Positions 6,814 to 31,827 of a DNA stretch of 31,827 nt are shown here, piece after piece. The stretch comes from Promethearchaeota archaeon (GTDB lineage Archaea > Asgardarchaeota > Lokiarchaeia > Sigyniarchaeales > SOKP01). Under the pieces are notes generated by a model that was given only the letters and a program-made list of their open reading frames with translations, did no database searches and was not told the DNA's origin. The DNA lies in NCBI GenBank assembly GCA_048938005.1, contig JBHLMQ010000036.1, forward strand, positions 1 through 31,827, in the 5' to 3' direction. Numbering within the stretch: the stretch's first letter is position 1; every line of letters starts with the position of its first letter. A program made the translations under genes and the position numbers.

Positions 6814-6854
6814 GATTAATAAAATATAATATTAAGACTCGAGAAATAGAATAT

Positions 6855-7212: not shown

Positions 7213-8988
7213 TTATACTTCCTTATGTTTTTTTTCTTGTTCTTCAACTTTCTGTTTTTTCTCTTCCTTATATGGTGTACTAGGTTTTAATTCATCAATT
7301 GATGCATTACACGCCCAACACACGTTTTCCAAATCGGTTATCGCTCGCGCACAGTTTCCACAATAAATCGCACCACATTCACAAATGTACGAATATTTTA
7401 ACACTTCTCCTCTACATATAAGGCAAACTTTTTTCTCTTTATGAATTGAAACTTTCTCTTCACTTACTTGGGCAGCTAAAATTGCACGATTCTGAAACAT
7501 ATTTCCAATTTGCTCATCCATACGGGATAACTCTATACGTTCAGCCATTGGGGCATTTTCTTCCTTTAATCTTTCCCATAATTCTAATTTATTTAGTAGT
7601 TCATCATGCTCATTTTCAATTTTCTTAGTTAATTTATTAAGATCAAATCTAATGGATATTTGCTTAGCTTGCATTAAAAATCGTTGAGCTTCCGTTATAT
7701 CTATGGTAATTAATGATAATTTACTTTTTAAAAGATAGGTTTCTGTTAATAACAAATGTGATTCTGTTGTTTCAGCAATATTCAATAATTTATTAATAAG
7801 GGGTTTTAACTCTTCTATTACTTCTGGGTTATTTAATATCCGCAGTTCAAATAATAATAAATCACAAAGATTTATTAAAGCTGTAAAAGTAACCTCACCT
7901 AAGATAATCTCTTCATCAATAATTACTTCAAGTAATTCTTGGGCTTTAGCCAGTTTTTGTATTCGAGTACTCATTTTCAGTACTAAAGCTTCACATAAAC
8001 GAGTATATGATTGAGACCATTTGAATCTATTTTGTTCATTGAATTGTTTTAACATTTCAAAGTATTTCTGTGCATTATCTTGATCTTTTTTTTCAACATA
8101 CAGGCAAATAATTGAACTAAGAGCACTTCCAATATTCCATTTATTTCGAATTTCTTCAGCAATTGTCAAAGCTTTCTTTAGATATTCTAAAGCTTGTTCT
8201 ATTTCACCTTTCTGTTGATATATACCTCCAATATTATTATAAAGAGTTGAAATTTGTCTTTTGTTTTTTAATTCTCTTGACATTGTAAGACTTTGCTTAT
8301 AATTCATAAGACCAAGTTCGATCTCACCTTTAAATGCATTTATCATTCCAAAAAGCATAAAATTATAAGCCATAATATGCTTTTGTTTAGTTTCCTCCGC
8401 TAATTGTTGACTTCGTTCTGTATATTCCTTAGCAATATCATATTCATATTTTAGTAGAGTATGAATTAATCCTAGACTTGTGAGAGATTCAGCAATTTCA
8501 GCTTTACTACCTAGTTCTTCTCTTACTGAAAGACTCCTTTCTGCATTTCTTATAGCTTGATCAGAATCACTTTTGAAAAAATAATAAAAGCTTTTAATAT
8601 AGTTTATAGAAGCTTGTTTTTGCCGTATTACATTTGAAGTTTCTTCATTATATTTATTGAGAATATTTTCACCTTTTTCAAGTAGATCCAAAGCTTTATC
8701 TAATGATATTTGCCATACTGAAGCATAAACCATAGAAAGAAGTGCATCTACTGATTGGAGATTATCACTTATTTCTTGGCTCTTTTGGTACGCTAGTTCT
8801 GCATATTTAAAGGCATCCTTATAACTTCCAATTTTATTTAGAATGTTACTTTTTAAAAGATTGGATGAAATTAGGTCATGGATCGTCAGGTTTTCATTTT
8901 CCTCAAAATTTTCAAGTAGGCGAAGAGCTTCATAGTATTTACCATCCTCATTTAACTGGTTTGCTTTTTTGAGTTCTTTATGATATAT
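7213..8988 (-). CDS. TPR-repeat protein with C-terminal C4C4 RING-like zinc finger
   Basis: About 40-aa TPR repeats (e.g. YNNIGGIYQQKGEIEQALEYLKKALTIAEE) and a C-terminal 8-Cys motif at 7309-7425. The ORF track starts at ATG 8733, but the frame stays open and TPR-like up to 9000. ATA at 8988 follows GAGGGAG. The start position is uncertain. Confidence 0.85.
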   Translation of the reverse strand: MYHKELKKANQLNEDGKYYEALRLLENFEENENLTIHDLISSNLLKSNILNKIGSYKDAFKYAELAYQKSQEISDNLQSVDALLSMVYASVWQISLDKALDLLEKGENILNKYNEETSNVIRQKQASINYIKSFYYFFKSDSDQAIRNAERSLSVREELGSKAEIAESLTSLGLIHTLLKYEYDIAKEYTERSQQLAEETKQKHIMAYNFMLFGMINAFKGEIELGLMNYKQSLTMSRELKNKRQISTLYNNIGGIYQQKGEIEQALEYLKKALTIAEEIRNKWNIGSALSSIICLYVEKKDQDNAQKYFEMLKQFNEQNRFKWSQSYTRLCEALVLKMSTRIQKLAKAQELLEVIIDEEIILGEVTFTALINLCDLLLFELRILNNPEVIEELKPLINKLLNIAETTESHLLLTETYLLKSKLSLITIDITEAQRFLMQAKQISIRFDLNKLTKKIENEHDELLNKLELWERLKEENAPMAERIELSRMDEQIGNMFQNRAILAAQVSEEKVSIHKEKKVCLICRGEVLKYSYICECGAIYCGNCARAITDLENVCWACNASIDELKPSTPYKEEKKQKVEEQEKKHKEV

Positions 8989-9256
8989 GTTTATCTCCCT
9001 CTAAAATATCGTAATTAAGATTTTTCCTCATTTTTAATAAATCTTTATTCTCCTTAAATTACAAATCGTATAAATTTGTTAATAGTTTATTATAATAACT
9101 AAGATTTCTGCCATTTATAAATATATTAATGATTTTCTTCATTTTTTGGCTTTTATCCAGAGATATTAGTAGGATACTGCGATTCCTATACTGTAGTATT
9201 AGTCAATAATTTAATATTGCAATATAATAAGAGAAATTATAAAAAAGGAGAGATTT

Positions 9257-10066
9257 TTAATCTATTTCGTCTTTTTTCTTATGTTTCTTATGCTTTTTTT
9301 CTTTCGCCTTTTTTTCTTCAATCTCTTTTTCTTTGGTTATATCTTCCTCAACTATCGGTTCTTCAGTTGCGGGTTCTACTTCAGGTTCTGGTTCTGGAGG
9401 TTTAGGTTTTCGTGAAATTATCACTTTTGCATAGCGGATAACTTCTTTTCCATATTTGAAACCGTCTTGAACTACTTCTAATATACTATTTTCTTCAATA
9501 TCTTCTTTTTCAACAGTTGTTAATGCTTCATGTACACTATAATCAAATTGATCATTCACACTTACTTGTATTGGTTCAGCTCCAAATGATTTTAAAATGT
9601 TCATAAACTGATTATAGAAGCCTTTTAACACATTCTTCTCAGTATCATTAGCGCTGTCAAGAGCTTTTTTAAATGAATCATATAAAGGTAAGAAACTTTT
9701 TAAAACTGATGCTGTGTATTCAATTCTCAAGTTTTGTCGATTTTTATCCCATCTTTTTTGAGCATTTTCAAATTCAGCTTGAAGATGTATAAATTTTTTC
9801 TTAGAGTCAGCATTTTCTTTTTGTATTTTATCAAGATTTTCCTTTAGTTTAGCTAATTCTTTCTCCAGATTTTCTTTTTCTTTGACTAGATCTTCTTTCG
9901 AAAAATAATCTAACTCAAAATGCTCTTTTTCCTCTAATTTTTTAATTTTCTGAGACTCTGTTTTTGTTTCTGCATTTTCTTGGTCTTCTGTTGGAAATGT
10001 TTCTGTATCAACTGAAACCTCTGGTTTAGATTCTTCTTTTAATTTATCATTGTTATCATCAGTCAT
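9257..10066 (-). CDS. grpE: Nucleotide exchange factor GrpE with long charged N- and C-terminal extensions
   Basis: LQAEFENAQKR, FLPLYDSF, FDYSVHEA and VVQDGFKYGKEVIRYAKV; GAGGT RBS; adjacent to dnaK. Confidence 0.93.
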   Translation of the reverse strand: MTDDNNDKLKEESKPEVSVDTETFPTEDQENAETKTESQKIKKLEEKEHFELDYFSKEDLVKEKENLEKELAKLKENLDKIQKENADSKKKFIHLQAEFENAQKRWDKNRQNLRIEYTASVLKSFLPLYDSFKKALDSANDTEKNVLKGFYNQFMNILKSFGAEPIQVSVNDQFDYSVHEALTTVEKEDIEENSILEVVQDGFKYGKEVIRYAKVIISRKPKPPEPEPEVEPATEEPIVEEDITKEKEIEEKKAKEKKHKKHKKKDEID

Positions 10067-10240
10067 ATTTGTACCTCATTACTCAATAAATATTTTTTAT
10101 GAACAGTAAATATATAATTTAAAATTGATAATCAGATTTATTCTTTATGATATATAGATCATTATAAATAAAATTTAATTATTACGCATAATTAATATTT
10201 ACTTAGTAAGTATAAATTTACAATTTAAAATAATTAAATT

Positions 10241-10255
10241 ATTAAATTCTAGAAA
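10241..10255 (+). promoter_or_regulatory. Candidate shared upstream motif of dnaK (ATTAAATTCTAGAAA)
   Basis: 14/15 identical to 12451-12465 upstream of dnaJ, at near-identical distance from the ATG (74 vs 72 nt). Confidence 0.35.
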
Positions 10256-10314
10256 ACCATTGAAAATTAAGATTTTTAATACAAACTATTCCAAGAAAAG
10301 AAGATGAGATTATT

Positions 10315-12321
10315 ATGAGTGAAGAAAAAACTGAAAAGCCAAAAAGAAAAGAGAAAATAATTGGAATTGATTTAGGAACATCTAATAGTGCTTGTGCAGT
10401 GTTAACTGGTACAGGAAAACCAGAAATTGTACCAGCTGCAGAAGGTAGAACTCTTGGAGGAAAAGCCTTCCCATCTTATGTAGCTTTTGATGAAAATGGT
10501 CGTAAAATAGTAGGAGAACCTGCTCGCCGTCAAGCTGTTTCAAACCCAGACGGTACTGTCACTGCGATTAAACGGAAGATGGGAACCTCTTACAAAGCTA
10601 AATTGAAAGTTGGGGATAAAATGCAAGAGTTTTCACCAGAGGAAATAAGCGCAATGATATTAAAGAAAATTAAAACCGATGCATCAGCATATTTAGGAGA
10701 AGATGTCAAAAAGGCAGTAATAACGGTTCCTGCATATTTTAATGATGCTCAAAGAACTGCCACTAAAAATGCTGGTGAAATAGCTGGTTTAGAAGTTGTA
10801 AGAATGATCAATGAACCTACAGCTGCTTGTTTGGCTTACGGTTTAGATAAAGATACTAAAGATAAATTAATGAAAATTTGTGTTCTTGATTTAGGTGGGG
10901 GAACATTTGATATTACCATAATGGAATATGGCGAGGGAGTAGTTGAAGTTTTGTCCACCGCTGGTGATACACAGCTCGGAGGGACAGATATGGATAATCA
11001 GATAATTGACTGGGTAACTGAAGAGTTTAAAAAGAAAGAAGGTATTGATTTAAAAGGTGATTCAAAAGCATGGATAAGAATTAAGGATGCAGGTGAAAAA
11101 GCTAAAATAGAATTATCCACAACTTTATCAACTACCATAAATTTACCTTATATTTCACAGAAAGGAGGGAATCCTGTTCATTTAACCATGGAACTTACAA
11201 GAGCAAAGTTAGAATCATTAATCGAACCAACTCTTAGACGTCTAGATCCAATTATGCAAAGAGCAATTTCAGATGCGAAATTAGCACCTAATAATATTGA
11301 TAAAGTTATATTAGTAGGAGGACCAACAAGAATGCCTTCTGTCCAGCAAAGATTCAAAAAATTCTTTGGAGGAAAGGAACCTGAGCATTCAGTAGACCCT
11401 ATGGAATGTGTAGCTATTGGAGCATCAATACAAGGGGGTGTAATTGCCGGAGATGTCGAAGATTTATTGCTCCTCGATGTGACCCCATTATCTCTGGGTG
11501 TTGAGACATTAGGTGGCGTGTTCACAAAATTAATTGAAAGAAACAGTACAATTCCTACTGAGAAAAGTCAAGTATTTAGTACAGCAGCAGATAATCAACC
11601 TGCAGTTACGATAAATGTTCTTCAAGGAGAAAGAGCAATGGCAAAAGATAATATTTCTCTAGGAATGTTTCATTTGACAGGTATCCCTCCAGCTCCTCGA
11701 GGTATTCCACAAATAGAGGTAAAATTCTCTATTGATGCCGATGGAATTGTACATGTCACTGCTAAAGATTTAGGAACAGGAAAAGAAACAGGTATCACAG
11801 TCACAGGTTCTCAAGGCTTAACACCAGAAGAAATTAGAGAAAAAGTTCAAACTGCAGAACAATTTGAGGAAGAAGATAAAAAAGTTAGAGAATTGGTTGA
11901 AGCTAAAAACAATGCTGACTCGATGATTTATCAAACTCGAAAATTAATGGAAGATAATAAAGATAAAATCCAAGAAAATGAAAAGAAAGAAATTGAAACA
12001 GCTATAAAATCATTGGAAGAAGATATCAAAACCGATGATGTTTCAAGAATTAAGTTAGGGGTTGAAAATCTACAAAAATCGATGTATAGCTTCTCTCAAA
12101 GGATTTATCAGGCTCAAGCTCAAGAACAGGTCTATCAACAAGCTGCTGAGCAAGCTCAGCGTGCTGCAAGTGATATGGGGGGCGTTCCACCAGGCGGAAT
12201 GGGTGGCGTCCCTCCAGGTGGAGTTGATGAGACGGGTGCTGGTGGTGCCACTTATAAAAAAGATAAGAAAGAAGAAGACAAGAAAAAGAAGGTTGTAGAT
12301 GTAGATTGGGATGAGGATTAA
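10315..12321 (+). CDS. dnaK: Molecular chaperone DnaK (Hsp70)
   Basis: [35 protein letters not shown] and linker [13 protein letters not shown]. Lacks the Gram-negative N-terminal insert. Confidence 0.99.
12175..12222 (+). repeat. Tandem 24-nt coding repeat (MGGVPPGG x2) in the DnaK tail
   Basis: atggggggcgttccaccaggcgga / atgggtggcgtccctccaggtgga encode an identical peptide with synonymous differences. Confidence 0.85.
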
Positions 12322-19274: not shown

Positions 19275-20645
19275 ATGAATAGCGATGAGATTTTAACTGT
19301 TTTAGAAGAAATTGTTGGCAAAGATTTTGCCTCAAATAAAGCCGAAGATCTTTACATCTATTCCCAAGATCCTGGAGCTTCTGAACCACGACCAGTTAAC
19401 TTTGTGGTAATGCCTAAAAGAGTCGAAGAAGTTCAGAAAATTGTAAAATTAGCAAATAAAGAAAAAATCCCACTTGTTCCTATGGGTGGTGGATTAACCT
19501 TAAGTGGTTTAGTAATTCCAATTAAAGGTGGAATTGTTATAGACATGAAACGAATGGATAAAATTATAGAAATAAACGAAACAAGTCGTTATGCTCTTAT
19601 TGAACCTGGAGTTACTACAGGTCGATTACTTGCACATCTAAATGAACATTATCCTGATTTACAACCACCAATTCCTGATGCGCCTCCTTCAGCTACGGTA
19701 ACAGGAAATGCCTTAATCCATGGATCAGGTTATCTATCCCAGAAATATGGTAATCATGGAAATATGATCAATGGATTAGAAGTAGTGTTACCAAATGGAG
19801 AAATCTGTAAATTGGGGTCTTGTGCCGTATCAGATTATTGGTTTACGAGAGGACCAATTCCTGATTTAATTGGTTTATTTATTAGTTCTTTTGGAACAAT
19901 GGGAATCATTACGAAATTATCATATAGATTATTTCCAAAACCTAAAATGCGAAATATGGTTTTTGGGATAATTAAAGATCCAAACATTATTCCAAGCCTG
20001 ATTTCTAAGATAACTTATACTGAAGTAGCAGAAGATATTCTTCTTGGCAAAGTAGATAAACCAGATTATTTAAAAGGATATGTCACTATCATGGTTTATA
20101 TTACAGGAGATTCAAAAGAAGAATTAGACTCTAAAATAAAGGATGTCAAACGATTATATCGTAAAAATGGCGCTCAACTTATGAAGTTACCTGAAAGGAT
20201 AATGAATATATTTCTAGAGAAACCTCAATTTGCTGCTGTTGCTGCTGATTATAGAAAAGGAGGCGGTTTTGAATATGTTGGTTCATTTTTACCCTTAGAA
20301 AAAACCCCTGAAGCAATTGAAAAAGCTACTGCGATTTCAAATAAATACAATATTGTTCCCACCATAACTTTAAGAATTATTGGAAAAGGTCATTGTGTAA
20401 TGTTCGCCCCCACATTTGCGTTTAATCGTGCAGATCCTGCTGATATACAAAATGCTCGGAATGCATTAGATGAGGCTAATAAACTTGTTTTAGAGTTGGG
20501 AGGGATCCCTTGGAAAGCTGAATTAGCAGGACAAAAACTCATCATTGAGAAAATGCATCCTAGTTATAAAAAACTACTTAAAACAATTCGAAACACTATA
20601 GATCCAAATGGAATAATGAATCCTGGAAATTGGGAGGTGAACTAA
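19275..20645 (+). CDS. FAD-binding oxidoreductase (GlcD/VAO-PCMH family)
   Basis: VVMP..VEEV, PMGGGLTLSG, IDMKRMDKI, EPGV, GLEVVLPNGE, GTMGIITK and DPNGIMNPG. Start moved to ATG 19275, which follows an AGGAG RBS. Confidence 0.93.
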   Translation: MNSDEILTVLEEIVGKDFASNKAEDLYIYSQDPGASEPRPVNFVVMPKRVEEVQKIVKLANKEKIPLVPMGGGLTLSGLVIPIKGGIVIDMKRMDKIIEINETSRYALIEPGVTTGRLLAHLNEHYPDLQPPIPDAPPSATVTGNALIHGSGYLSQKYGNHGNMINGLEVVLPNGEICKLGSCAVSDYWFTRGPIPDLIGLFISSFGTMGIITKLSYRLFPKPKMRNMVFGIIKDPNIIPSLISKITYTEVAEDILLGKVDKPDYLKGYVTIMVYITGDSKEELDSKIKDVKRLYRKNGAQLMKLPERIMNIFLEKPQFAAVAADYRKGGGFEYVGSFLPLEKTPEAIEKATAISNKYNIVPTITLRIIGKGHCVMFAPTFAFNRADPADIQNARNALDEANKLVLELGGIPWKAELAGQKLIIEKMHPSYKKLLKTIRNTIDPNGIMNPGNWEVN

Positions 20646-20647
20646 AT

Positions 20648-21820
20648 ATGAGTTTAGAAGTAAGGCAAGATTGGAAAGATATTGTTCATAGATGTTTTAG
20701 ATGCGGTTATTGTAAATTTACTCATACTTATTCTGATTTTAACTGTCCAAGCTATAAAAAATTTAGATTTGAGACTTATAGTACTGGAGGTAGATTGTGG
20801 CTTATATATAGTATTATTAATGGAGATCTTAAATGGAGTCCGAATTTGGCAAATGTATTATATGCTTGTTCTACATGTGGAAATTGCGTAGAAAATTGTA
20901 GATTTGTAAAATTTAATGATTTTCTTGTTGATATAATTGAAGCAGCTCGAGCCGAAGCTGTGAAAAATGGATTCTGTCCTGAAAATCAAAAGGTTTTATT
21001 AGAACGTACTAAAAATACAGAAAATTATAATCCATACGGTGAAAAAAATTCTGATAATCAAGAATTAAAAAAGAAATATGATTTACCAGATAAAGCAGAG
21101 TGGGTATACTATATAGGATGCACATCAAATTATCGTCAACAAAACCTCCGAGATTCAACAATAAGATTTCTCAAAAAAGCAGGTATAGAATTTACTTTAA
21201 TAGATGAACATTGTTGTTGTAGTCCTATAATCCGAACAGGTCAAATTGATCCTGTAGAAGATTTTATGAATTATAATATCGCTCAAATTAAAAATACAGG
21301 AGCAACTAAAGTAATAACGTCTTGTGCCGGGTGCTATCGCACATTAAAGAAAGACTGGATCAAATTTGGTGCTACTTATGATTTTGAGGTATATCACACT
21401 GTTGAATTAGTTAAACAGCTTTTAGATGAAGATCGATTAAAAATTAAATCTGAATATAAAAATACAGTAACTTATCATGATCCTTGTCATTTAGGGCGCC
21501 ATGTGGGGATGTATGAGATCCCTAGAGAAGTTTATAATGAAATTCCTGGAATTAAATTAGTAGAGATGCGACGAAATAGAGAAAACGCATGGTGTTGTGG
21601 TGCTGGTGGAGGGGTAAAGATTGGTTATCCAGAATGGTCAGTAGAAGTCTCACAAGAAAGGTTAGAAGAAGCTAAAGAAACAGGTGCATCTGTAATATCC
21701 TCAATATGTCCATTCTGTAGAACAAACTTATCAGATGCAAACAAAAAGTATAATATGGATTTTGAAGTAATAGATTTGATAGAGATTTTAGATAAACTAG
21801 ATATTGATATAAACAAATAG
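20648..21820 (+). CDS. (Fe-S)-binding protein, GlcF/HdrD-like (4Fe-4S dicluster plus two CCG domains)
   Basis: CFRCGYC..CP, CSTCGNCVENC, YIGC, CCC, CAGC, YHDPCHLGR, CCGAGGG and CPFC. ATG 20648 follows GGAGGTGA (20633-20640). Confidence 0.93.
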   Translation: MSLEVRQDWKDIVHRCFRCGYCKFTHTYSDFNCPSYKKFRFETYSTGGRLWLIYSIINGDLKWSPNLANVLYACSTCGNCVENCRFVKFNDFLVDIIEAARAEAVKNGFCPENQKVLLERTKNTENYNPYGEKNSDNQELKKKYDLPDKAEWVYYIGCTSNYRQQNLRDSTIRFLKKAGIEFTLIDEHCCCSPIIRTGQIDPVEDFMNYNIAQIKNTGATKVITSCAGCYRTLKKDWIKFGATYDFEVYHTVELVKQLLDEDRLKIKSEYKNTVTYHDPCHLGRHVGMYEIPREVYNEIPGIKLVEMRRNRENAWCCGAGGGVKIGYPEWSVEVSQERLEEAKETGASVISSICPFCRTNLSDANKKYNMDFEVIDLIEILDKLDIDINK

Positions 21821-21859
21821 AAAAAAAAAATAAATATTTGATTTTAATTTTTTTACTTT

Positions 21860-22873
21860 TTAATAATTCAATTTTTCACCTAGTGCCATACGAGCTAAAT
21901 CACTTAGCAGATAATTCTTTAATCCATTTCTCTCTACTTTTGCTCCTAACACTTCTTTACACATGGGGCAATTATATACACAAACTTCAGCTCCATGATC
22001 AACCATATCTTTAACATTTTTATTTTGCGTTGGTCTTGCCAAATTGCTTTTACCTATCCAGCTAAATGCTCCCGCACAACATAATGCATTTTCTCGATCA
22101 TATTCTCTTGCCACCCGTTCTACTCCTATTAATTCACAAATTTTGTCAACCCATTTATCAGTTTCTGGTATAAATCTATTGGAACAATTTCTTTGATATG
22201 CAATCTTCATATTAAGCTTGATTAATTCTGATTCATGCTCCTTAAGATAATTATAGACATATTCAAAGAGATGAATGGGTTTAAAAGGCACATCAATATT
22301 ATTTCTTTGACAATAAGATGTCCATAATCCATAACATTCATCATGCCAACAAATTAATTCTTTTACGCCATGTTTCTTAATATTCTCCATTATGATTGGG
22401 AGTCTTTCTCTAATTACTGAATCCTTAGCCAAGTGATGATATTGTAAATTGCAAAAAAAAGCACGACCACTTAAATATTGTAAATTTTCAAACATTTGTC
22501 CCTTCATTTCTTCAGGATTTAAGGTTGAAAACGTACATTTATGAAAAACTGGTTTATCTGGGTCTATTTCCTTTAATCTCAACTCATAAGGAGGTTTAAA
22601 CCTATCAATTGTAGTTTTTAGTGTATTAGGATCAATATCAAGACTATTATGTTTTTCTTGTAATTCTGTTATTAAATCGAATGGATGTGAACTATACGGA
22701 CAATACTCATCGCATGCATAGCAAGTAACGCATTCCTTTAAGACGAATGAATCCTCTCCGCTAATCATTTTTTCCATTTCAATTCTCGCTGTCTCTTGAT
22801 CAATATCCATCCATTGACATCGAGTTAAACAGTCAACATTTTCACACTCAGAACAATGAGATTTATCAAACAT
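21860..22873 (-). CDS. (Fe-S)-binding protein with ferredoxin-like N-terminus and CCG-type domains
   Basis: CSEC...CLTRC, CVTCYACDEYCP, FCN, HDECY, YQRNC, CCAG and CPMC. Confidence 0.88.
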   Translation of the reverse strand: MFDKSHCSECENVDCLTRCQWMDIDQETARIEMEKMISGEDSFVLKECVTCYACDEYCPYSSHPFDLITELQEKHNSLDIDPNTLKTTIDRFKPPYELRLKEIDPDKPVFHKCTFSTLNPEEMKGQMFENLQYLSGRAFFCNLQYHHLAKDSVIRERLPIIMENIKKHGVKELICWHDECYGLWTSYCQRNNIDVPFKPIHLFEYVYNYLKEHESELIKLNMKIAYQRNCSNRFIPETDKWVDKICELIGVERVAREYDRENALCCAGAFSWIGKSNLARPTQNKNVKDMVDHGAEVCVYNCPMCKEVLGAKVERNGLKNYLLSDLARMALGEKLNY

Positions 22874-23102: not shown

Positions 23103-25205
23103 CTAGAATATGAGTAATCCAAGTCCACTATTGAAAATAGGAAGTAAAAGTAATCCCATAAAGATTGAAGCAGTAAGAGACATAACAACTAATAAAGTAT
23201 TTATGCTTGGTCCAGCGGTATCTTTGAAAGGATCCCCAACGGTGTCTCCTGTAATAGATGCTTTGTGAACCTTCGTACCCTTTCCTCCCAGGTTACCTTC
23301 TTCTATCCATTTCTTAGCGTTATCCCAGGCTCCACCTGCATTAGCCATCATTACAGCGAAGACAAATCCGGATAAGATTGCTCCTGTTAAGAAAGCTCCT
23401 AAAGCAGCGACTCCAAATAAAACACCTACAACAATAGGTATAACAATCGAAATTACACTCGGTAAAATCAATTCTTTCAATGAACCTTTTGTAGCAATAT
23501 CAATTGTTCTACTAAAATCTGCTGCTTCTTCACCTGATAGAATTTTCGGATTAGATTCAAATTGTCGCCTTATTTCATCCACCATCTTTGCTGCGTTTCT
23601 TTGAACTGCCAGTATTAAAAGTGCTGAAAAGAGTGCTGGAACTACTACACCTATGAATGCTCCAATTAAGACTTTAGGAAATAATAAAGATATATCCGTT
23701 ACTGCAATCCCCGCTTCTGTTGCAAATGAGAATAATAATGCTAATACTGTCAAATTAGCAGCTCCAATTGCAAATCCTTTAGTAATTGCCTTAGCAGTAT
23801 TTCCTGCAGAATCTAATCTATCAGCAGTACGGATAATATCATCGCCTAATTCTCCTTGCTCGGCTATAGCCCTAGCATTGTCAACTATGGGACCGTAAGC
23901 ATCATTAGAGACTATGGTTCCAACAATAGATAACATTCCTACAGCGGCCATTGCTACACCTAAGAATCCGTCAAAAGCATATGCAACAGCCATAGCAACT
24001 ACAATTCCTATCGCTGGCGGAACAACGCTCATCAATCCATAGGAGAACCCTGAAAGAATAACAACAGCATGTCCTTCTTGTGCCGCATGAGCCATATTAC
24101 GTGTTGGTTTTCTATCATCTCTCGTAAAGTAATCACTAGTAAAACCGATAATTAAACCACTTGCTAAACCTAATAGGACAGCAAAATAATTCAACCATAT
24201 TTTTCCATAATAACTTGGATCCAGCAATGGATCTAATGTCATTAAGAAAGCGAAAAGCGCCCCTAATCCCGCAAAAATAAGTGTAGCAAGGTATGTGCCT
24301 AAATTTAAAGATTTTCCGGGATCCTCAGAACCTTTCCACTTGATAAGAAAAATTCCTATGAGGGATGCTATTAATCCAACTCCTGATAGTACTATTGGAT
24401 AAATAACAAATGATCCTGAAACATCTAAAGTAACTAAAGCTGCTGCTAAAATCATTGCGGCAACAATTGATGCTACATATGAGTCAAATAAATCACTACC
24501 CATTCCAGCAATATCACCAACGTTATCACCAACATTATCGGCAATCGTTGCGGGATTTCGTGGATCATCTTCTGGAAGATCATATTCTGCCTTTCCTACG
24601 AGATCTGCTCCTACATCAGCTGTTTTAGTGTAAATTCCACCCCCACATTTCATAAAGAGGGCAATACTGCTTGCACCGAAGCTAAAACCTAATACAACTA
24701 AAGGTGTTTGAAAGATCCAATAAATAATTGACACTCCGATTAATGCTACACCCACAACAGCCAATCCCATAACTGAACCTCCAAAGAATGCTATATCAAA
24801 TCCTTTTTTGGTTCCTATGGTGCAACCTTGTGCTGCTCTAGTATTAGCTTTAACACCTACATACATGCCCAACCAACCAGCTAACATAGAACCAACAGAA
24901 CCAATTACATATGCTAAAGCTTGTTCCCAATTAAGTATTCCACTCGTAATGGGAACGGTAAATCCTGTCATTTCAGAAGGTAAAAATAATAACATTACAA
25001 CAAAAAGCGCAGCGACAAAAATTCCAAGAATTTTGTATTGGACTTTGAGGTAAGTTGTCGCCCCGGTCTCAATATAAGAGGCCACCTCCTGCATTCTTTC
25101 ATTCCCCGGATCTTCTTTTAAAACCAGAGATCTAAAATACATTGCCATTGCTATTGAGATTATCCCTGCTATTAATGCGACAATTAAAATTATTGGTACA
25201 GCCAT
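23103..25205 (-). CDS. hppA: Membrane-bound ion-translocating pyrophosphatase, K+-independent signature
   Basis: GGGIYTKTADVGADLVGK, EDDPRNP, DNVGDNVGD, DAYGPIVDNA, GNTAKAITKG, GGAWDNAKK and GDTVGDPFKDTAGP; many TM helices. Confidence 0.96.
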   Translation of the reverse strand: MAVPIILIVALIAGIISIAMAMYFRSLVLKEDPGNERMQEVASYIETGATTYLKVQYKILGIFVAALFVVMLLFLPSEMTGFTVPITSGILNWEQALAYVIGSVGSMLAGWLGMYVGVKANTRAAQGCTIGTKKGFDIAFFGGSVMGLAVVGVALIGVSIIYWIFQTPLVVLGFSFGASSIALFMKCGGGIYTKTADVGADLVGKAEYDLPEDDPRNPATIADNVGDNVGDIAGMGSDLFDSYVASIVAAMILAAALVTLDVSGSFVIYPIVLSGVGLIASLIGIFLIKWKGSEDPGKSLNLGTYLATLIFAGLGALFAFLMTLDPLLDPSYYGKIWLNYFAVLLGLASGLIIGFTSDYFTRDDRKPTRNMAHAAQEGHAVVILSGFSYGLMSVVPPAIGIVVAMAVAYAFDGFLGVAMAAVGMLSIVGTIVSNDAYGPIVDNARAIAEQGELGDDIIRTADRLDSAGNTAKAITKGFAIGAANLTVLALLFSFATEAGIAVTDISLLFPKVLIGAFIGVVVPALFSALLILAVQRNAAKMVDEIRRQFESNPKILSGEEAADFSRTIDIATKGSLKELILPSVISIVIPIVVGVLFGVAALGAFLTGAILSGFVFAVMMANAGGAWDNAKKWIEEGNLGGKGTKVHKASITGDTVGDPFKDTAGPSINTLLVVMSLTASIFMGLLLLPIFNSGLGLLIF

Positions 25206-25337
25206 AATTTTTCACTTGATTATCGTTATCTTAAATCTTTTTTATAAAATTTTTATGTTAATATATTAAAAAGATATCACACAAAATTTCCTAAATCATT
25301 AAAACATTTTGAATTTAAGAGAAATTAATTTTCTATG

Positions 25338-25406
25338 AAAAAGTAAAACATTATAAATTGAGCTGACTGTTTATTAATCATCTTATTAGACGAATAAGGT
25401 CGAAAT
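25338..25406 (+). promoter_or_regulatory. Conserved upstream element, copy 1 (BRE/TATA plus downstream box)
   Basis: AAAAAGTAAAACATTATAAATTGAGCTGACTGTTTATTAATCAT...TATTAGACGAATAAGGTCGAAAT; repeated at 29330-29409. Confidence 0.7.
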
Positions 25407-25437
25407 TTAGTAAATATAAACCCAAGTTCGATAATAA

Positions 25438-28400
25438 ATGTCTTTATTGAATGAAAGTGGACTCAGCTTATTAGAAAAAGCTCGAGAACACAGAAAGGAA
25501 TATAACTGGTTGGAAGCAGTGAGGTTTTTTGATCAAGCTGTGGATTATTATATTGATAAAAAAGATCCAGAAAAAGTATTGGAGATTTGTGTGGAACTTT
25601 TCGTTTATGGTAATTTTTACTTCGCTACTGTTTCAACAACTAAACAACTTATAGCAGTTTTTAGTTTAGAACTTAAAATCTTTGAAAAATGCGAATCTTT
25701 CTATAAGCAGTTAGGGAAGAAAGCTGAAGAATTGGAATGCACAGCAATTAAATTGCTATTTAATATATCCAGCCAAATTCCTATAGTTGAAGCGGATAAA
25801 ATGATTGACAAATCAATTGAGATCTATAATAAACTAAATGAAATTTATAAGGAAGAAAAAAAAGAAGAAGTTATTGTTAGAATTGCGCTAGGGAAAATTG
25901 GGGCAATGCATATAAAAACAATGTTTGACCCTAATCCTCAAGAAATTAAAAATTTCTCTCAAAAATATATTGAACTTTTTGAAAAAGGATGGGAAATCTC
26001 AAGAGACATTAGAAATGTGAATTACTTAATTTATTTCTTATATTTTATGACATATTGGTTTATCAACAACCAATATGGATTTTTTTCTTATGATAAGCAT
26101 ATTCAAGCAAGAAGACATAGAGATCTAATAGTAAAATGTGAAGAAGCTTTAAGGATCATTGATGACACTAATTATGAGGATATATTATTCCTTGGAGTTT
26201 TACATAGTCTAATCGGTATTTTATACTCTGAATATGCTTTCAAAATTTGTGAGAATGACATAGAACAAAGAAAATATTTTGATAAAGGGATGAATTTTTT
26301 AGAGATTAGCTTAGATAATACAAGAAAGACAAAAGACAAAAATACTTTAATGTATGCAATTGGTGGATTGTCCAGGTATGCCTTGCTTAGCGGCAAGATA
26401 ATGTATCTCCAAAATAGAATTACTAAAGACCTTCAAGATAGTGAAAGAGCGGGAAAGATATTTGTGGAATACTTTGAACAAAAAAGTTCTTTAGGAATAA
26501 TTATTGCCGCGATTCTTTTTCAGCTATATTATTTACCAAGTTTATATTATTCTAATACTGCTCTGATGAGCTTTTTTACATCATTCCAAAGAATATCGTA
26601 TGCTAAGAAAGCGATTGATTATAGCTTAAAAAATCTAAAAATGATTCCTATATTGGATAAATATTCATATCTAGCTCTTACTGTTTCTTATGCAGTCTTA
26701 GCGAAGTTAACCTCATCAAAGGAGGAACAGAATCAGTATATCGAAAAAATGCTTAATTACGCAAAAGTAGCAAATAAATTAGGAGAAAAGTATGAAGGAG
26801 GACAGGTTCGGACATTTGGATATGGATCTTTATACAGAGCATATAAAACTATAGCAGACATCGCAGAAAATGAAGAAAAGAAAATTATAATGCTGACATC
26901 TGCAATAGATTCAGCAGAAAAATATATGGATTATGCAACGGAATCTCGGGCAGGTGTTATAGCAGCCCTAATGCGGTTAGGGCTTCTTTATGAAGAACTT
27001 GGTATTTTAACTAAAGATAATCATAAATTATTGAATTCAAAAGAAAAATTGCTTGAAGCAATTAGAGGTAGCTTGGAAAGAGGATATTATTCTTACGCAG
27101 GTACTACCTATGAGTATGTTGCGCGTATAGAGGATCGATTAGGAAATCATACAGCTTCAGCAGAATATTATCTAAATGTTCAAGAAAATCACGAGAAGTC
27201 ATTGGAAAGCATTGAATATAGGTTACTTAAAAAAAGAATTACAGAAAAGATAGATTATGCTCATGCCTGGAACCTGATTGAGAAAGCTAAAGCACATCAT
27301 AGAAATGAAAATCATTTAAAAGCAAAGGAAAGTTATGAAAAATCTAGTGAAATTTTACAAAAAATCCCAAGGTATTCTTTTGAAGGATCTTATAATGCCG
27401 CTTGGGCCTTATTAGAAGAAGCAGAACTATTAAGTAAACAGGAAAGACAAAAAGAAGCTATAAATCAGTATAAATTAACAATACAAGCTTTCGAAGAAGC
27501 TATAATAATACTTGAAAATGCATTAGAAAAAGCTGAAGGGCAACCCGAAAGGGAACGAATAGATAAACTTCAGAAGGTCGCAAAAGTAAGAATAAGTTAT
27601 TGTAACGCCAGAATTAATTTAGAAGAAGCTAGAATCTTAGGGAAAACGGGGGATCATTCAACAGCTTCAGAAAAATTTGCTATTGCAGCATCGGTTTTTA
27701 GAGGTGTCTGTACAAGATATAAGTTAGAAAGAGAAAGAAAGGAGCTTGAAGCAATATATTATCTTTGTCGAGCATGGGAGAGTATGGAACTTGCTGAAAA
27801 ATTTGAAGAACCAGAAAGGTTTGAATATTCTGCAAATCTATTTACAAAAGCTAGTAACCTCTTTATTGATACAAAATTAAAGTTATTAGCTTTAGGTAAT
27901 TCAGCATTTTGTCAAGCTCTTGAGTTGAGTTGTAAATTTGATCAATCAATGAATATTAGGATAAAAACAGAATTATATCCTAAAGTGAAGTTGATGCTAA
28001 GTAACGCAGCTTCCTCTTATGGCAAAAGCGGTTTTGAGAATGTAGCAGATTGGGCTTTAGCTACTTCGATCTATTTTGATGCTGCTTGGCACTTAATTCA
28101 AGCTGACAAAGAACTGGATATAAATGAAAAAGGAAGGTTATTGGGTATTGGATCAAATTATTTAAAGTCAGCTTTAGAATTATTTAATAAAGCGGGTTAT
28201 AAAAATAAAGTTGTTGAGGTTCAAGACAGATTAAACAGAGTAGAGAAGGAAGAATCCATTCTTTTTTCCGCTTTAAATACTATAAAAGAACCATCAATCT
28301 CTCGAAGTACTATAGGTATAGTTGCTCCTTCTTGCCCTATCGAAAGCAGCCAATCGCCCAGACTAGGGGAAGCTCGTCAGTTCACTGAGGAGGAACTTCG

Positions 28401-29304
28401 AGTTACCATGGAGAGAATGGAACGAAAAAAGTATGAACTTATTTATAAAGATTTGGTTAAAGAATATACTAAAGTTCAAAGAAGAGAATGCAGGGTTGGT
28501 ATTGCCCAAATAGGTGTATCCGAGTCTGGAGATATAATGGATGAACTTTATGAAATGAGTCCTTCAGGTCTGTTAAAAATAAAAGAAAATAGGATTGAAA
28601 AAACAATATCTCAAGTTAAAGTCATGATTGAAAAAGCGCACAATGAAGGAGTCAATATATTACTCTTTCCAGAAATGACTATTGATCTGAACTATGGGGA
28701 AGTTTTTAAAGAAATTGCAGATCAAGCTAAATTGTATGAGATGTATATTGTTCCAGGTTCTTTTCATGAAGCAGAAACGAAACGAAATATTAGTATGGTT
28801 TTTGGACCAGAGGGTATTCTTTGGGAACAAGAGAAACATATTCCCGCAACTATAAGCTTCGAGGCGGGAAAGCAATTCAAAGAGGGAATAGAAGTTAGCA
28901 GTTTACCTCGAAGAACAATTATTTGCAATACGGAATATGGAAGAATAGCTATTGCGATTTGTCGAGACTTTCTTGACATGGACTTAAGGGTAGAATTAAA
29001 AAATTCCGAGCCTCCTATAGATATAATTCTAAATCCCGCATTTACGCCAGTAACTGCAGATTTTAAAGCAGCCCATTTTGATGCCCGTCGATCCATTTAT
29101 GCCTATTCATTTTTTGCTAATATTGGAGAATATGGAGAATCCCTTATTTATACTCCAGAAAAAGACCGGACTGAACGAATTATCCCAGCAAAAGAAGAAG
29201 GATTGATTTTCAAAGATATAGATCTATTCAAGCTGCGTTCTGAACGTAAAAAGTGGGAAAAAGAACAGGGTAAAAAACGATTATTTATTCAAAGCACAAG
29301 ATAA
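25438..29304 (+). CDS. 1288-aa TPR-like alpha-solenoid protein with C-terminal carbon-nitrogen hydrolase (nitrilase) domain
   Basis: About 950 aa of helical repeats, a Ser/Pro linker, then RVGIAQ, LLFPE (Glu), QEKHIP (Lys) and IAICRD (Cys), i.e. a complete E-K-C triad. Confidence 0.9.
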   Translation: MSLLNESGLSLLEKAREHRKEYNWLEAVRFFDQAVDYYIDKKDPEKVLEICVELFVYGNFYFATVSTTKQLIAVFSLELKIFEKCESFYKQLGKKAEELECTAIKLLFNISSQIPIVEADKMIDKSIEIYNKLNEIYKEEKKEEVIVRIALGKIGAMHIKTMFDPNPQEIKNFSQKYIELFEKGWEISRDIRNVNYLIYFLYFMTYWFINNQYGFFSYDKHIQARRHRDLIVKCEEALRIIDDTNYEDILFLGVLHSLIGILYSEYAFKICENDIEQRKYFDKGMNFLEISLDNTRKTKDKNTLMYAIGGLSRYALLSGKIMYLQNRITKDLQDSERAGKIFVEYFEQKSSLGIIIAAILFQLYYLPSLYYSNTALMSFFTSFQRISYAKKAIDYSLKNLKMIPILDKYSYLALTVSYAVLAKLTSSKEEQNQYIEKMLNYAKVANKLGEKYEGGQVRTFGYGSLYRAYKTIADIAENEEKKIIMLTSAIDSAEKYMDYATESRAGVIAALMRLGLLYEELGILTKDNHKLLNSKEKLLEAIRGSLERGYYSYAGTTYEYVARIEDRLGNHTASAEYYLNVQENHEKSLESIEYRLLKKRITEKIDYAHAWNLIEKAKAHHRNENHLKAKESYEKSSEILQKIPRYSFEGSYNAAWALLEEAELLSKQERQKEAINQYKLTIQAFEEAIIILENALEKAEGQPERERIDKLQKVAKVRISYCNARINLEEARILGKTGDHSTASEKFAIAASVFRGVCTRYKLERERKELEAIYYLCRAWESMELAEKFEEPERFEYSANLFTKASNLFIDTKLKLLALGNSAFCQALELSCKFDQSMNIRIKTELYPKVKLMLSNAASSYGKSGFENVADWALATSIYFDAAWHLIQADKELDINEKGRLLGIGSNYLKSALELFNKAGYKNKVVEVQDRLNRVEKEESILFSALNTIKEPSISRSTIGIVAPSCPIESSQSPRLGEARQFTEEELRVTMERMERKKYELIYKDLVKEYTKVQRRECRVGIAQIGVSESGDIMDELYEMSPSGLLKIKENRIEKTISQVKVMIEKAHNEGVNILLFPEMTIDLNYGEVFKEIADQAKLYEMYIVPGSFHEAETKRNISMVFGPEGILWEQEKHIPATISFEAGKQFKEGIEVSSLPRRTIICNTEYGRIAIAICRDFLDMDLRVELKNSEPPIDIILNPAFTPVTADFKAAHFDARRSIYAYSFFANIGEYGESLIYTPEKDRTERIIPAKEEGLIFKDIDLFKLRSERKKWEKEQGKKRLFIQSTR

Positions 29305-29329
29305 GACTAGTGCGCTGACTATTTTTCTA

Positions 29330-29409
29330 AAAAAGTAAAATATTATAAATTGAACTAAATGTTTATTAATTATTCAAAGTAATTAATATTAGACAGTTAA
29401 GGTCGAAAT
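29330..29409 (+). promoter_or_regulatory. Conserved upstream element, copy 2
   Basis: AAAAAGTAAAATATTATAAATTGAACTAAATGTTTATTAATTAT...TATTAGACAGTTAAGGTCGAAAT; 39/44 identical to copy 1 in the first block. Confidence 0.7.
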
Positions 29410-29440
29410 AGAACACAAACAATTCTATAATTGATCCTAA

Positions 29441-31827
29441 ATGACTTTAGCGGAAACTGAAGAGTCACTATTAGATAAGGCAAGAGAGGAGGAAAGAAAG
29501 TACAATTGGATTGAAGCAACAGCGTTATATGAAAAAGTTGTCAAATTCTATTTAGAGAAAAATCTAGTTGAAAAAGCTGCTAATTGTTATAAAAATCTTG
29601 GATATGCTCACTTCAGAGGTGCTGATACGATAGAAACTGCGGAGGATTATTTGAAACAACTTAAGTGTGCTATTAAAGCGTACAAAGAGGCAAATAAGCT
29701 CTTTAAGCAACTTGGAAATAGATCTGTAGAGTTTGAGTGCGAAGCAGAAATATTTTCTATAAATGGGATTCTCGCAACTTCTGATGTGGAAGGTCAGAAG
29801 GCATTTCTTCATGTGATTAAACTTTTAAGTGAATCAAGTGAGATATATTCCAAAGAAGGTGATAAAGAGAGTTTTGCGAGAGTAATGTGCCGTATAGCGT
29901 CAACTTCGTATTTCCTCATGAACTATAACATTAATCAAGATGAATATAACCAAGTTATCCAACAAGGAAGTGAATGTGCTGATAAAGCTTGGGAGATTTC
30001 AGAAAAGATTGGAAATATTCAGCTTATGTCTGAGTCATTGAATATGAGACTTATGATTAGTTTTATGGGATGGTCAGTCAAAGATTTTAAAAAAAATGAA
30101 AATTTGAGGGAGGGAGCAAAGAATTTCTTGGTAGAAGGTAATAAAACTATTGCGATTATTGAAAAAGTAGATGATCCTTATGCCCTCAGTCTAGTTTATT
30201 CAGCAATAGGGATTTGTTATTGCTACACTGGATATCAATTCGTCGAAGATGAAAAAGAACAAGAGGAATACCTTGATAAGGGAATAGAATTACTAGAGAA
30301 ATCGTTAAATTTTTCCAGAAAAGCGAAAAGTAAATTTAACGTACTAGGAAGTTTGTTTTTCATAGATTACTTTGCACTTTTTAGTGGCAGAATCAATTAT
30401 CTCCAGAAGAGAATTCTTAATGACATCAAAGACTGTTTGGAATTAGGGAAGATTTATGCACATTCTTATAATTTTTATCGTTCTATGGGAAATATTATAC
30501 CTGCGCTTTATTATACTAATTCTTCACAGAGGAGTTTTTTTACTGCAGCACAACGCAAAATTTATGCTGAAAAAGGGCTCCAATATGTAAAGGAAGCAAT
30601 GAGTGTACCTAATTACCCCAGTATTACAGCATGGTTATACCAAGGTTTGATATTAGCTTACTCTCAACTTACAATTCTCGCAGAATCAAAAACAAAACAA
30701 GAAGAATATGCCCAAATTATGCTTCAACATGCAAAACAGGCAGAACAATTCGGTTTAAAATATGAAGGAGGATTTCCTCAGGCTGGTGGTTATACAAGTC
30801 TTTATAAGGCTTATAAAACACTTGCAGATATCGCTAAAGAGAAGGAAGAAAGGATCAAAAACCTTAAAAAGGCAATAAAAGCCCAAAAAAAATCAACCAG
30901 TTACGGTATATTATCTCGGTCTGGTGCCATTACGGAGCAAATGAGGTTAGGACTATTATATGAGGAATTAGGGATTATAACGGGAGAAGAAACTATTTTA
31001 AATCAAGCACGGGAAATTTTTCTCCACACAATAAAAGAGAGTGTTGATAGAAGATATTATTCTTATGAAGCGGCGAGTTATCAATATATAGCTCGTATAG
31101 AAGATCGATTGGGTAATTATATGGTTTCTGCAGAAAATTATAAGAAAGCTCAAGAAGCATATAATAAGTCGTTGAAAATGATAAAATACAAACTTCTAAA
31201 AAAGAGAATCAATGAGAAATTTAATTATGTGAGGGCTTGGAATTTAATAGAAGAAGCTAAATCGTTTCATGTTCGAGAAAATCACATAAAAGCTAAGGAA
31301 TTCTATAAGAAAGCTTATGACATACTAATAGAATTACCAAGTTTCGGTTATGAAGCATCTTATTATTCTGGATGGATATCATTGGAAGAAGCAGAAAAAC
31401 TAAGCAAACAAGAAGAGCACGAAAGAGCTATAGAAAGCTTTAAAAAGACAGGAAAAATCTTTGAAAAAGCAATTGGAACATTAATAAAATCCCATCAGAA
31501 ATCAAGAGAAAAATTTGAAAAAGAGAGAATAAATAAGTTTGAAAAAATAGCTCAAGTAAGAGTGAATCATTGTAATGCGAGAATAAACCTTGAAGAAGCA
31601 AGGATATTAGGAAAAGAAGGTGAACATATAGCAGCAGCAGAAAAATTTGCGCTAGCATCCTCTCAATTCAGAGATATATGTATTTTATTTAAAATTAAAC
31701 GAGAACGAGAGGAGTTAGAAGCGGTTTACTATCTGTGCAGAGCTTGGGAAAATATGGAACTTGCTGAAAAATATGAAGATCCTTACAGATTTTCCGAAGC
31801 AGCAGGATTGTTTGCAAAAGCAAGTGA
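29441..31827 (+). CDS. Tandem paralog of the 1288-aa solenoid protein, 3'-truncated by window edge (not in ORF track)
   Basis: ATG 29441, open for 795 codons to the window end. Starts MTLAETEESLLDKAREEERKYNWIEA. Shares KYEGG, AYKT.ADIA, MRLGLLYEELGI, ARIEDRLGN, AWNLIE, CNARINLEEARILGK and YYLCRAWE.MELAEK with the upstream gene. Confidence 0.92.
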   Translation, partial: MTLAETEESLLDKAREEERKYNWIEATALYEKVVKFYLEKNLVEKAANCYKNLGYAHFRGADTIETAEDYLKQLKCAIKAYKEANKLFKQLGNRSVEFECEAEIFSINGILATSDVEGQKAFLHVIKLLSESSEIYSKEGDKESFARVMCRIASTSYFLMNYNINQDEYNQVIQQGSECADKAWEISEKIGNIQLMSESLNMRLMISFMGWSVKDFKKNENLREGAKNFLVEGNKTIAIIEKVDDPYALSLVYSAIGICYCYTGYQFVEDEKEQEEYLDKGIELLEKSLNFSRKAKSKFNVLGSLFFIDYFALFSGRINYLQKRILNDIKDCLELGKIYAHSYNFYRSMGNIIPALYYTNSSQRSFFTAAQRKIYAEKGLQYVKEAMSVPNYPSITAWLYQGLILAYSQLTILAESKTKQEEYAQIMLQHAKQAEQFGLKYEGGFPQAGGYTSLYKAYKTLADIAKEKEERIKNLKKAIKAQKKSTSYGILSRSGAITEQMRLGLLYEELGIITGEETILNQAREIFLHTIKESVDRRYYSYEAASYQYIARIEDRLGNYMVSAENYKKAQEAYNKSLKMIKYKLLKKRINEKFNYVRAWNLIEEAKSFHVRENHIKAKEFYKKAYDILIELPSFGYEASYYSGWISLEEAEKLSKQEEHERAIESFKKTGKIFEKAIGTLIKSHQKSREKFEKERINKFEKIAQVRVNHCNARINLEEARILGKEGEHIAAAEKFALASSQFRDICILFKIKREREELEAVYYLCRAWENMELAEKYEDPYRFSEAAGLFAKAS

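Follow-up and report, generated by a model that had tools for sequence, protein, structure and literature searches.

The stretch of DNA analysed here (the window; 31,827 nucleotides of a Promethearchaeota archaeon) is the whole of one contig, JBHLMQ010000036.1 (designated C62), of a metagenome-assembled genome (MAG). This genome (G000) has 3.72 Mb in 101 contigs, is 95% complete with an estimated contamination of 7.2%, and has a G+C content of ∼31%. At the right end of the window, next to a pyrophosphatase gene, lie two large genes in tandem, designated A and B, which encode proteins with a long helical repeat; that of A ends in a nitrilase-superfamily domain. The features of the locus are as follows.

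23103..25205, minus strand: H+-translocating pyrophosphatase gene (Pfam H_PPase, E = 3e-229), the conserved left anchor of an insertion/deletion site
25336..25412, plus strand: upstream element of gene A, with a TATA-like box, an inverted repeat, and an 11-nt deletion
25438..29304, plus strand: gene A, paralog lineage A, TPR-like solenoid-nitrilase, 1288 amino acids (aa)
25438..26787, plus strand: fast-evolving N-terminal third of A, aa 1-450, helices H1-H18, 31% identical to B
26788..28281, plus strand: conserved distal solenoid of A, aa 451-948, helices H19-H37, with one conserved face and a ratio of nonsynonymous to synonymous substitutions (dN/dS) of 0.07-0.24
28282..28437, plus strand: flexible linker of A, aa 949-1000; homology to a TIR-ended relative stops just past it
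28438..29301, plus strand: nitrilase-superfamily domain of A, with E1079, K1133, E1149, C1175, and an invariant C-terminal tail
29326..29412, plus strand: upstream element of gene B, a full-length copy, from sequence comparison across species
29441..31827, plus strand: first 795 codons of gene B, paralog lineage B, which continues in contig C11 (173013 down to 171493) to give 1277 aa

A first-pass annotation of the window had noted a second copy overlooked by the open reading frame (ORF) track. Such a gene is present. B starts at 29441, 136 nt past the stop codon of A, and has no stop codon within the contig (795 aa). It appears in an ORF list only if open-ended frames are included, which accounts for its absence from the ORF track. 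The N-terminal motif and all four shared blocks that the annotation had quoted were found in the BLASTP alignment of A with B, and the part of B within the window has 331/812 identities with A (41%; E = 0).

The remainder of B was located on another contig. C62 and C11 have the same 77 nt at their right ends, in reverse-complement orientation, and among the contig ends of the assembly this sequence is unique to these two. There are 34 such 77-nt contig-end pairs in the assembly, as expected from neighbors in a k = 77 graph; the left end of C62 has an exact 77-nt overlap with C29. When joined in silico, B encodes 1277 aa and aligns in a single high-scoring segment pair (HSP) over residues 1-1277 with intact orthologues in two other genomes (81% identity in G041 and 73% in G013). 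The C11 genes past B encode a methyltransferase, a polyketide-cyclase-like protein, two pyridine-nucleotide-disulphide oxidoreductases, and one more protein. In all 15 array-less genomes among the 20 congeners examined, these same genes are directly beside the H+-pyrophosphatase gene. The join of C62 and C11 was accepted because of the exact 77-nt overlap, the single-HSP joined frame, and this synteny. Given the join, the C terminus of B, for which either the same or a swapped effector had been envisaged, is the same nitrilase domain as in A (78% identity over A 782-1288), and the swap did not materialize in this genome.

The possibility that the second copy is an assembly artefact, whether through collapse of a repeat or chimerism of the MAG contig, is slight in the extreme and is already contradicted. 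The contamination estimate and the 101 contigs are compatible with it, as are assembly breaks inside conserved parts of family genes: contigs often break within the conserved distal part, at the right ends of C62, C11, and C19 and in C49 and C54 of a congeneric genome, G100. However, A and B are only 56% identical and are saturated at synonymous sites, G100 has the A-B adjacency on one contig, and the B orthologues in G041 and G013 are intact single ORFs. Moreover, near-identical Logan contig pieces from runs of four different studies (X2, X4, X6, and X13) cover both genes; none of the listed pieces extends across the stretch, and at the listed joints the sides are short (21-92 letters; 90% likeness). 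Because assemblies break inside family genes, the copy counts of the family in MAGs are lower bounds.

Helical solenoids with exchangeable C-terminal domains

The AlphaFold2 model of A aa 1-960, built with 90 aligned sequences, was entirely helical repeat, with 37 helices over aa 6-948 (predicted local distance difference test [pLDDT], 90.7; predicted template modeling score, 0.82). The top Foldseek matches to this part were long TPR superhelices (E, 2e-10 to 1e-8; template modeling [TM] score, 0.2-0.33; identity, 10-13%). The TPR_12 family scored 20.2 and 26.3 bits, under its cut-off of 30.1, and a comparison of aa 1-700 with a protein atlas gave generic TPR clusters only (recognition 1807, below the reliable level). 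Ctr9, Ski3, the IFT-A TPR subunits, and TTC7 are, like A aa 1-960, all-alpha superhelices of paired helices, a generic fold resemblance at these TM scores that is no evidence of homology or shared function. No NCBIfam family matched A. Two other candidate domains were rejected. Matches to the MIT domain (PF04212) were all below cut-off (best, 28.1 versus 30 bits), were limited to 6/38 members, and fell in two places (∼aa 7-37 and ∼650-700); PDB matches to the VPS4 MIT domain reached an E value of 0.002-0.008 at best. The MIT matches were read as the repeat's own consensus. For a SNAP domain at the N terminus there were sub-threshold or scattered matches only.

From H19 on, odd-numbered helices had a higher mean identity than even-numbered helices (0.707 versus 0.578; Mann-Whitney P = 0.009; paired Wilcoxon P = 0.012), and the distal solenoid therefore has one conserved face. 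No alternating conserved face was detected in the N-terminal 18 helices (odd, 0.40; even, 0.45; P = 0.16), among which H9-H11 were the least conserved of all (0.30-0.34).

A second model, of A aa 701-1288 (pLDDT, 79), comprised the last helices, a low-confidence linker (pLDDT of <50 over aa 949-976), and a nitrilase-type alpha/beta domain, of which the last ten residues were also of low confidence. The C-terminal domain is thus predicted to have the alpha-beta-beta-alpha sandwich fold of the nitrilase superfamily. Pfam CN_hydrolase (PF00795) matched A 1048-1268 (27.5 bits versus a cut-off of 23.2; E = 2.4e-6) and 36/38 scanned family members at E ≤ 0.05. Nit2/omega-amidase and other small amidases (2w1v, 6ypa, and 7elf) were the best fold and sequence matches. 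A Foldseek search of the PDB retrieved mouse Nit2 (2w1v; E = 5.7e-13; target-normalized TM score [TMt], 0.74), as well as PH0642 amidase, beta-alanine synthase, and other superfamily members, and phmmer matched 7elf at E = 1.7e-5. The E-K-E-C spacing of the Nit2-type amidases, with the second Glu at K+16, is the same as in A and B; unlike the A and B domains, these enzymes are free-standing proteins of ∼270 aa, and identity is 18%. The corresponding residues in B are E1068, K1122, E1138, and C1164. All four residues of the tetrad and the last five residues of the protein are invariant in 88 aligned sequences. We presume that the tetrad is catalytic from its alignment to Nit2-type enzymes and from general knowledge of the superfamily.

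The best-scoring PADLOC profile for A 1015-1266 was the defence profile RTasNitrilase (46.5 bits versus 27.5 bits for the general CN_hydrolase model; E = 6.4e-13), and the match is confined to profile positions 124-370 of 397, which correspond to the nitrilase. A known system of similar architecture is DRT1, which comprises a reverse transcriptase, an alpha-helical repeat, and a nitrilase; the nitrilase is the effector and is active only as an oligomer, conserved C-terminal residues complete the active site of the neighboring subunit, and the substrate is unknown (PMC13275509). DRT1 (class 3 UG-Abi; PDB 9yfd) and the A/B family have in common a helical repeat followed by a C-terminal nitrilase, the full tetrad, and the conserved extreme C terminus. 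Unlike DRT1, A and B have no reverse transcriptase family among their Pfam matches, their solenoid extends over ∼950 aa, and the family is found in Asgard archaea only and is not known to have a defence phenotype.

The nitrilase domain appears to be a module. In a scan of 1.84 billion representatives, it matched 236 proteins at E ≤ 1e-3, 70 at E ≤ 1e-10, and 49 (clusters) at E ≤ 1e-30, beyond which there was a drop to E ∼1e-10; the Asgard domain forms a tight subfamily of its own. The match ended ≤4 residues from the protein C terminus in 39 of the 40 best hits, P0124 being the exception. Among the 22 closest hits (28 were scanned), the N-terminal parts were TPR or TPR_MalT repeats (10 proteins), beta-helix/NosD (3), alpha/beta hydrolase (2), protein kinase (1), and AAA_16 with alpha/beta hydrolase (1; AAA_16 is in P0124), and 5 had no other Pfam domain. 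HEAT/TrmB, LRR, or nSTAND3 domains preceded the nitrilase in more distant hits. The window also encodes a separate 506-aa canonical TPR_12/TPR_MalT protein (7213-8733, minus strand), and TPR/TPR_MalT repeats are fused to this nitrilase subfamily in other organisms.

Exchange also affects the C-terminal end. P0017, which is 75% identical to A, has TIR_2 after ∼aa 1005 in place of the nitrilase; up to that point, most 100-residue windows have 75-88% identity with A, and those over aa 101-400 have 49-61%. In another genome, G116, a TPR-TIR gene is directly upstream of a TPR-nitrilase gene.

Divergence, descent, and copy number of the array

A and complete B have 710/1273 identical residues, and this identity is distributed unevenly: 31% over aa 1-450, 51% over aa 451-700, 71% over aa 701-980, and 80% from aa 981 to the end. 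In 50-residue windows, it was 15-47% in aa 1-446, 46-66% in aa 447-896, and 64-96% from aa 797 on. The mean pairwise identity of 119 family members was 0.31-0.49 in aa 1-450 (mean, 0.43), 0.55-0.61 in aa 451-700, and 0.64-0.87 beyond. The A-B tree distance was 2.99 substitutions/site for aa 1-450, 0.81 for aa 451-980, and 0.38 for aa 981-1288, which bears out nonuniform divergence of the two genes. The sparse N-terminal similarity that then rises, as the first-pass annotation had described by eye, is therefore real as a gradient. However, the rise is gradual, and the poorly conserved part reaches to ∼aa 450 and not ∼300.

A word-based protein search, in which 8000 candidates were scored, yielded 703 at E ≤ 1e-3. 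Most were 1266-1294 aa long, and the sources had labeled the matches Promethearchaeota, Lokiarchaeota, or other Asgard. Within a set of 31 genomes including G000, the family was detected in 16/18 congeners and in 0/12 genomes from three other families of the order. Matches per congener ranged from 0 to 16, and the two genomes with none, G003 and G004, are 97% and 95% complete. Across the phylum, 25/121 genomes had a match at E ≤ 1e-40; the full-length architecture was found in three families of the phylum, and elsewhere the nitrilase alone (55-63% identical) was fused to other N termini.

In the maximum-likelihood tree, A falls in a clade of 6 proteins (support, 1.0) with a sister clade of 5, designated A2 (1.0), and B falls in a clade of 20 (0.98); each of the three clades holds proteins from other genomes. 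The clades were kept in the N-terminal and middle partitions. They were lost in the nitrilase-only tree, a short and highly conserved partition, which could be due to low signal or to module exchange. A and B are thus two old paralog lineages. A young, locally diversifying pair is not compatible with their position in separate deep clades with orthologues elsewhere and with their saturated synonymous sites.

Recent gene conversion was considered for the conserved distal half of A and B and was rejected. Synonymous divergence (dS) was saturated in all four regions (1.2-2.5), and third-position identity at identical residues (0.42-0.80) had no rising trend along the gene. Between A and A2, dS was lower distally (0.62-0.65 versus 1.37-1.47), and it is possible that there was an older exchange between these lineages.

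Selection was evaluated in pairwise Nei-Gojobori windows; a metagenome scan gave 17 loci, 2 of them close to A, too few for site-level tests. In nine pairs, dN/dS was 0.31-0.47 for aa 1-450, 0.10-0.24 for aa 451-700, 0.07-0.13 for aa 701-980, and 0.06-0.12 for the nitrilase. For A and its G100 orthologue (dS, 0.26), overall dN/dS was 0.21, with windows of 0.32-0.90 in aa 1-402 and 0.02-0.22 in aa 603-1288; the highest 100-codon window was 0.90. Constraint on the N-terminal part is three- to six-fold weaker than that on the distal part. Diversifying selection on a recognition region, as had been proposed, was not observed, because even for aa 1-450 as a whole dN/dS did not exceed 0.47, and it was <1 in every region in 9/9 pairwise comparisons, as under purifying selection. 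Between B and its G100 orthologue, dS was 0.8-0.98 in aa 101-400 (window positions 29741-30640) and 0.15-0.65 in other windows, a mosaic that suggests replacement of an N-terminal segment by recombination.

Family copies are present at the pyrophosphatase locus of 5/20 congeners. B is the only one in G013 and A2 the only one in G012, and in G041 B is followed by A2; the A copy of G031 is truncated by the contig end, and G014 has a truncated copy of another type. G100 has three copies there. In the direction away from the pyrophosphatase gene, the order of copies is A2-A-B in G100, A-B in G000, B-A2 in G041, B in G013, and A2 in G012, and the remaining 15/20 congeners have the methyltransferase/oxidoreductase genes in this position. 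Copy number thus varies among relatives, as had been anticipated, with 0-16 matches per genome and 0-3 copies in this position. An array elsewhere, in G015, comprises five consecutive copies, the last without a nitrilase, and the closed genome G006 has a tandem pair and dispersed copies, one with an internal stop.

The family orthologues had a lower dS than the adjacent pyrophosphatase gene in 7/7 species pairs (0.26-1.11 versus 1.15-2.19); examples are A (0.26 versus 2.11) and A2 of G012 and G041 (0.30 versus 1.96). For G000 and G100, dS of other flank genes was 0.58-1.20, and DNA identity was 88% over the 6.2-kb array versus 73-83% in the flanks. From these few genomes, we infer that the array may have been exchanged between species by recombination. 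A second insertion/deletion lies close to the array: window positions 19453-22596, with FAD-linked oxidase and CCG-domain genes, are missing from the G100 contig (L028), which is collinear apart from this segment.

The genes of lineages A, A2, and B have in common an upstream element of ∼85 nt (9 copies in 5 species; 78% mean column identity), which has been kept though the coding sequences are saturated at synonymous sites. It contains a TATA-like sequence, ATTATAAAT, and just downstream an inverted repeat, TGAATG-N9-CATTCA. The elements of A and B are 90% identical over 41 nt (blastn), and those preceding the A2 and B orthologues of other species are 88-96% identical. Solo copies (89% and 85%) are present in G039 and G017, at 2 of the 15 array-less loci, and look like scars of array loss. 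A structured RNA leader was rejected (RNAalifold, -3.5 kcal/mol; 0/12 pairs covarying), and Rfam gave nothing relevant, its single match being a chance CRISPR-DR17 inside gene A (E = 0.53). The element may be a DNA-level promoter with an operator, in which case each copy would be transcribed on its own. The element is also present at L012:2313-2393 and L016:17206-17285, and a weaker copy in G000 (C8:34951-35006; 84% over 56 nt) lies ∼320 nt upstream of the gene for a 541-aa TPR protein with a Cys-rich C terminus.

Several of the arrays elsewhere lie between TauE/methyltransferase genes and a gene for a 296-aa AbrB-like protein accompanied by UbiA. The 296-aa protein has an AbrB/MazE-type N-terminal domain, and its gene, followed by the UbiA gene, is beside arrays in G015, G001, and G100 (L033:7951-8841, L035:3028-3918, and L029:2571-3461). 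The G000 copy (C43:427-1314), situated 426 nt into contig C43, is 82-87% identical. This protein may be a regulator of the family. A HEPN-nucleotidyltransferase pair is beside the array in G001.

Relatives in a ubiquitin-type operon and possible functions of the family

A paralogue of A on contig C9 of the same genome is an 880-aa protein consisting of a GTPase, the helical module, and the nitrilase, and is 61% identical to A 711-1288. The gene is part of an operon (L040, corresponding to C9:58000-77000; genes at 5077-12300, minus strand) for a Ras-family GTPase, the 880-aa protein, JAB/MPN, E1 (ThiF), and E2 (UQ_con); a C1-domain protein is encoded nearby. The same order was found in G006, G122, and G015 and thus, with G000, in 4/7 examined genomes with the fused gene. 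In G012, the fused gene is beside a second GTPase-JAB-E1-E2 set, and in G005 and G008 it has no adjacent JAB/E1/E2. G116 has a GTPase-only gene with JAB, E1, and E2, divergent and beside its TPR-TIR/TPR-nitrilase pair. Other paralogues of the distal module in G000 are on C19 (cut by the contig end) and, in two cases, on C70. The C70 proteins (L006 922-2205, 427 aa; L007 1117-2145, 342 aa) have a P-loop GTPase-like N terminus and the helical module, are 38-46% identical to A 684-941, and lack the nitrilase; winged-helix regulator genes are nearby.

The first-pass annotation had likened the array to immune-receptor arrays, with variable recognition regions on a conserved transducing scaffold. 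Similarities to single-chain immune sensors of the STAND/NLR and Avs types, TPR-bearing ones included, do exist: a repeat sensor with a swappable effector (TIR/nitrilase), tandem arrays of variable copy number, and a recognition end that evolves faster. In contrast to STAND/NLR proteins, A and B lack NACHT, NB-ARC, and AAA_16, carry the effector at the C terminus, and have dN/dS of <1. At this locus, two members of a family of single-chain proteins of ∼1280 aa, specific to Asgard archaea, are encoded in an array. The best-supported reading, to which we give about even weight for and against, is that such proteins function as accessory sensor-effectors without a nucleoside triphosphatase (NTPase) domain, possibly in defence.

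In such a sensor-effector, the N-terminal third (H1-H18) would set what is bound, the conserved distal solenoid, with one face kept, would couple binding to the enzyme, and the nitrilase (or TIR) would be the output. By analogy with other nitrilases and DRT1, the nitrilase probably needs oligomerization and the invariant C-terminal tail for activity. A and B would be two old lineages of differing specificity that have been retained next to each other, each with its own promoter/operator-like element, and the array would be an accessory cassette at a fixed chromosomal site that is gained, lost, reordered, and exchanged between species. Ligand binding, activation by oligomerization, a substrate, and a role in defence or conflict are accordingly to be regarded as predictions for the family.

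Several observations weigh against sensor-effectors, and four of them, the lack of an NTPase, dN/dS of <1, the housekeeping neighbors, and the generic nature of the PADLOC matches, speak against a role in defence as well. Pfam detected no NTPase family in A or B at E ≤ 1 (NACHT, NB-ARC, and AAA_16), and a transducer in the sense of an NTPase domain, as in the receptors invoked earlier, is thus lacking. With dN/dS of <1 throughout, the N-terminal pattern fits relaxed constraint as well as a change in specificity, and the A/B pair is not unusual because the median dN/dS for Asgard tandem paralogues, in the available part of PMC13247210, is 0.367. The window genes flanking the array are housekeeping genes by Pfam. 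PADLOC recognized no system among 37 flank ORFs of other arrays (9/37 had generic domains: methyltransferase, radical SAM, AAA, E1/JAB, and nucleotidyltransferase). The phmmer comparison of the A nitrilase with DRT1 9yfd was marginal (E = 0.13), none of 35 pattern matches in viral contigs was confirmed as a homologue, and the 55-63% identity of the nitrilase across families of the phylum would suit a core enzyme too.

The principal alternative, not exclusive with a sensor-effector, is a regulated amidase tied to the ubiquitin-like/proteostasis machinery of Asgard archaea and not to defence, in which the distal helical module and nitrilase would act on, or be controlled by, ubiquitin-like conjugation, and TPR or GTPase front ends would choose substrates or partners. 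The fused C9 paralogue inside the GTPase-JAB-E1-E2 operon, the order of which is kept in 4/7 genomes, the divergent set beside the TPR-TIR/TPR-nitrilase pair in G116, the strong purifying selection on the nitrilase (dN/dS, 0.06-0.12), and the housekeeping flanks all fit this. However, the TPR form was found neither in G003 and G004, which are 95-97% complete, nor in the 12 sister-family genomes; the family is absent from the locus in 15/20 congeners; the nitrilase is replaceable by TIR; and A and B themselves are not beside ubiquitin-type genes. The operon link does not discriminate between the two readings, as E1/E2/JAB also serve bacterial defence (PADLOC E1-E2 and JAB profiles match). We consider this alternative rather unlikely, with perhaps one chance in a few of being correct. 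Ordinary subfunctionalized paralogues of a scaffold-bound metabolic amidase, with N-terminal variability that reflects relaxed constraint and no recognition role, would account for dN/dS of <1 everywhere, the smooth gradient without a sharp hypervariable patch, the lack of an alternating conserved face in the N-terminal helices, and the small-molecule amidases (Nit2, PH0642 amidase, and beta-alanine synthase) as closest folds. Yet a 950-residue solenoid of near-fixed length (∼1266-1294 aa for most hits) with a pLDDT of 90.7 is no decaying appendage, and metabolic enzymes do not typically have module swaps (here with TIR, kinase, AAA_16, LRR, and HEAT), a presence/absence pattern of this kind, or interspecies exchange. 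A purely metabolic amidase thus seems improbable.

The sensor-effector reading has a more far-reaching form, which we regard as a long shot. The family would be an NTPase-less receptor-type system in which exchanged TPR sensor arrays drive a nitrilase/TIR effector that is mechanistically wired to eukaryote-like ubiquitin machinery. Such wiring is predicted from the occurrence, within the JAB-E1-E2 operon, of a GTPase fusion with this helical-nitrilase module. In the full text of the literature searched, no paper joins Asgard or Lokiarchaeota with nitrilase in this sense, and the word "nitrilase" is absent from the text of the Asgard defence surveys; supplementary tables, which were outside both searches, may list such genes.

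If this wiring exists, the family would represent a precursor, in archaea, of innate immune signaling linked to ubiquitin, and its amidase chemistry would be one that, in immunity, is so far known from DRT1 only. As sensor-effectors in general, the proteins would have recognition that varies at one end, a conserved scaffold for coupling, and effectors that plug in, and would operate with no NTPase switch of the kind by which NLR/STAND proteins are defined. The A/B family may also provide a second setting, independent of DRT1, for the nitrilase effector that is unexplained in that system, and the recurrent tie of the helical-nitrilase module to the Ras-GTPase/JAB/E1/E2 operon makes non-housekeeping jobs of the Asgard ubiquitin-like system a testable question.

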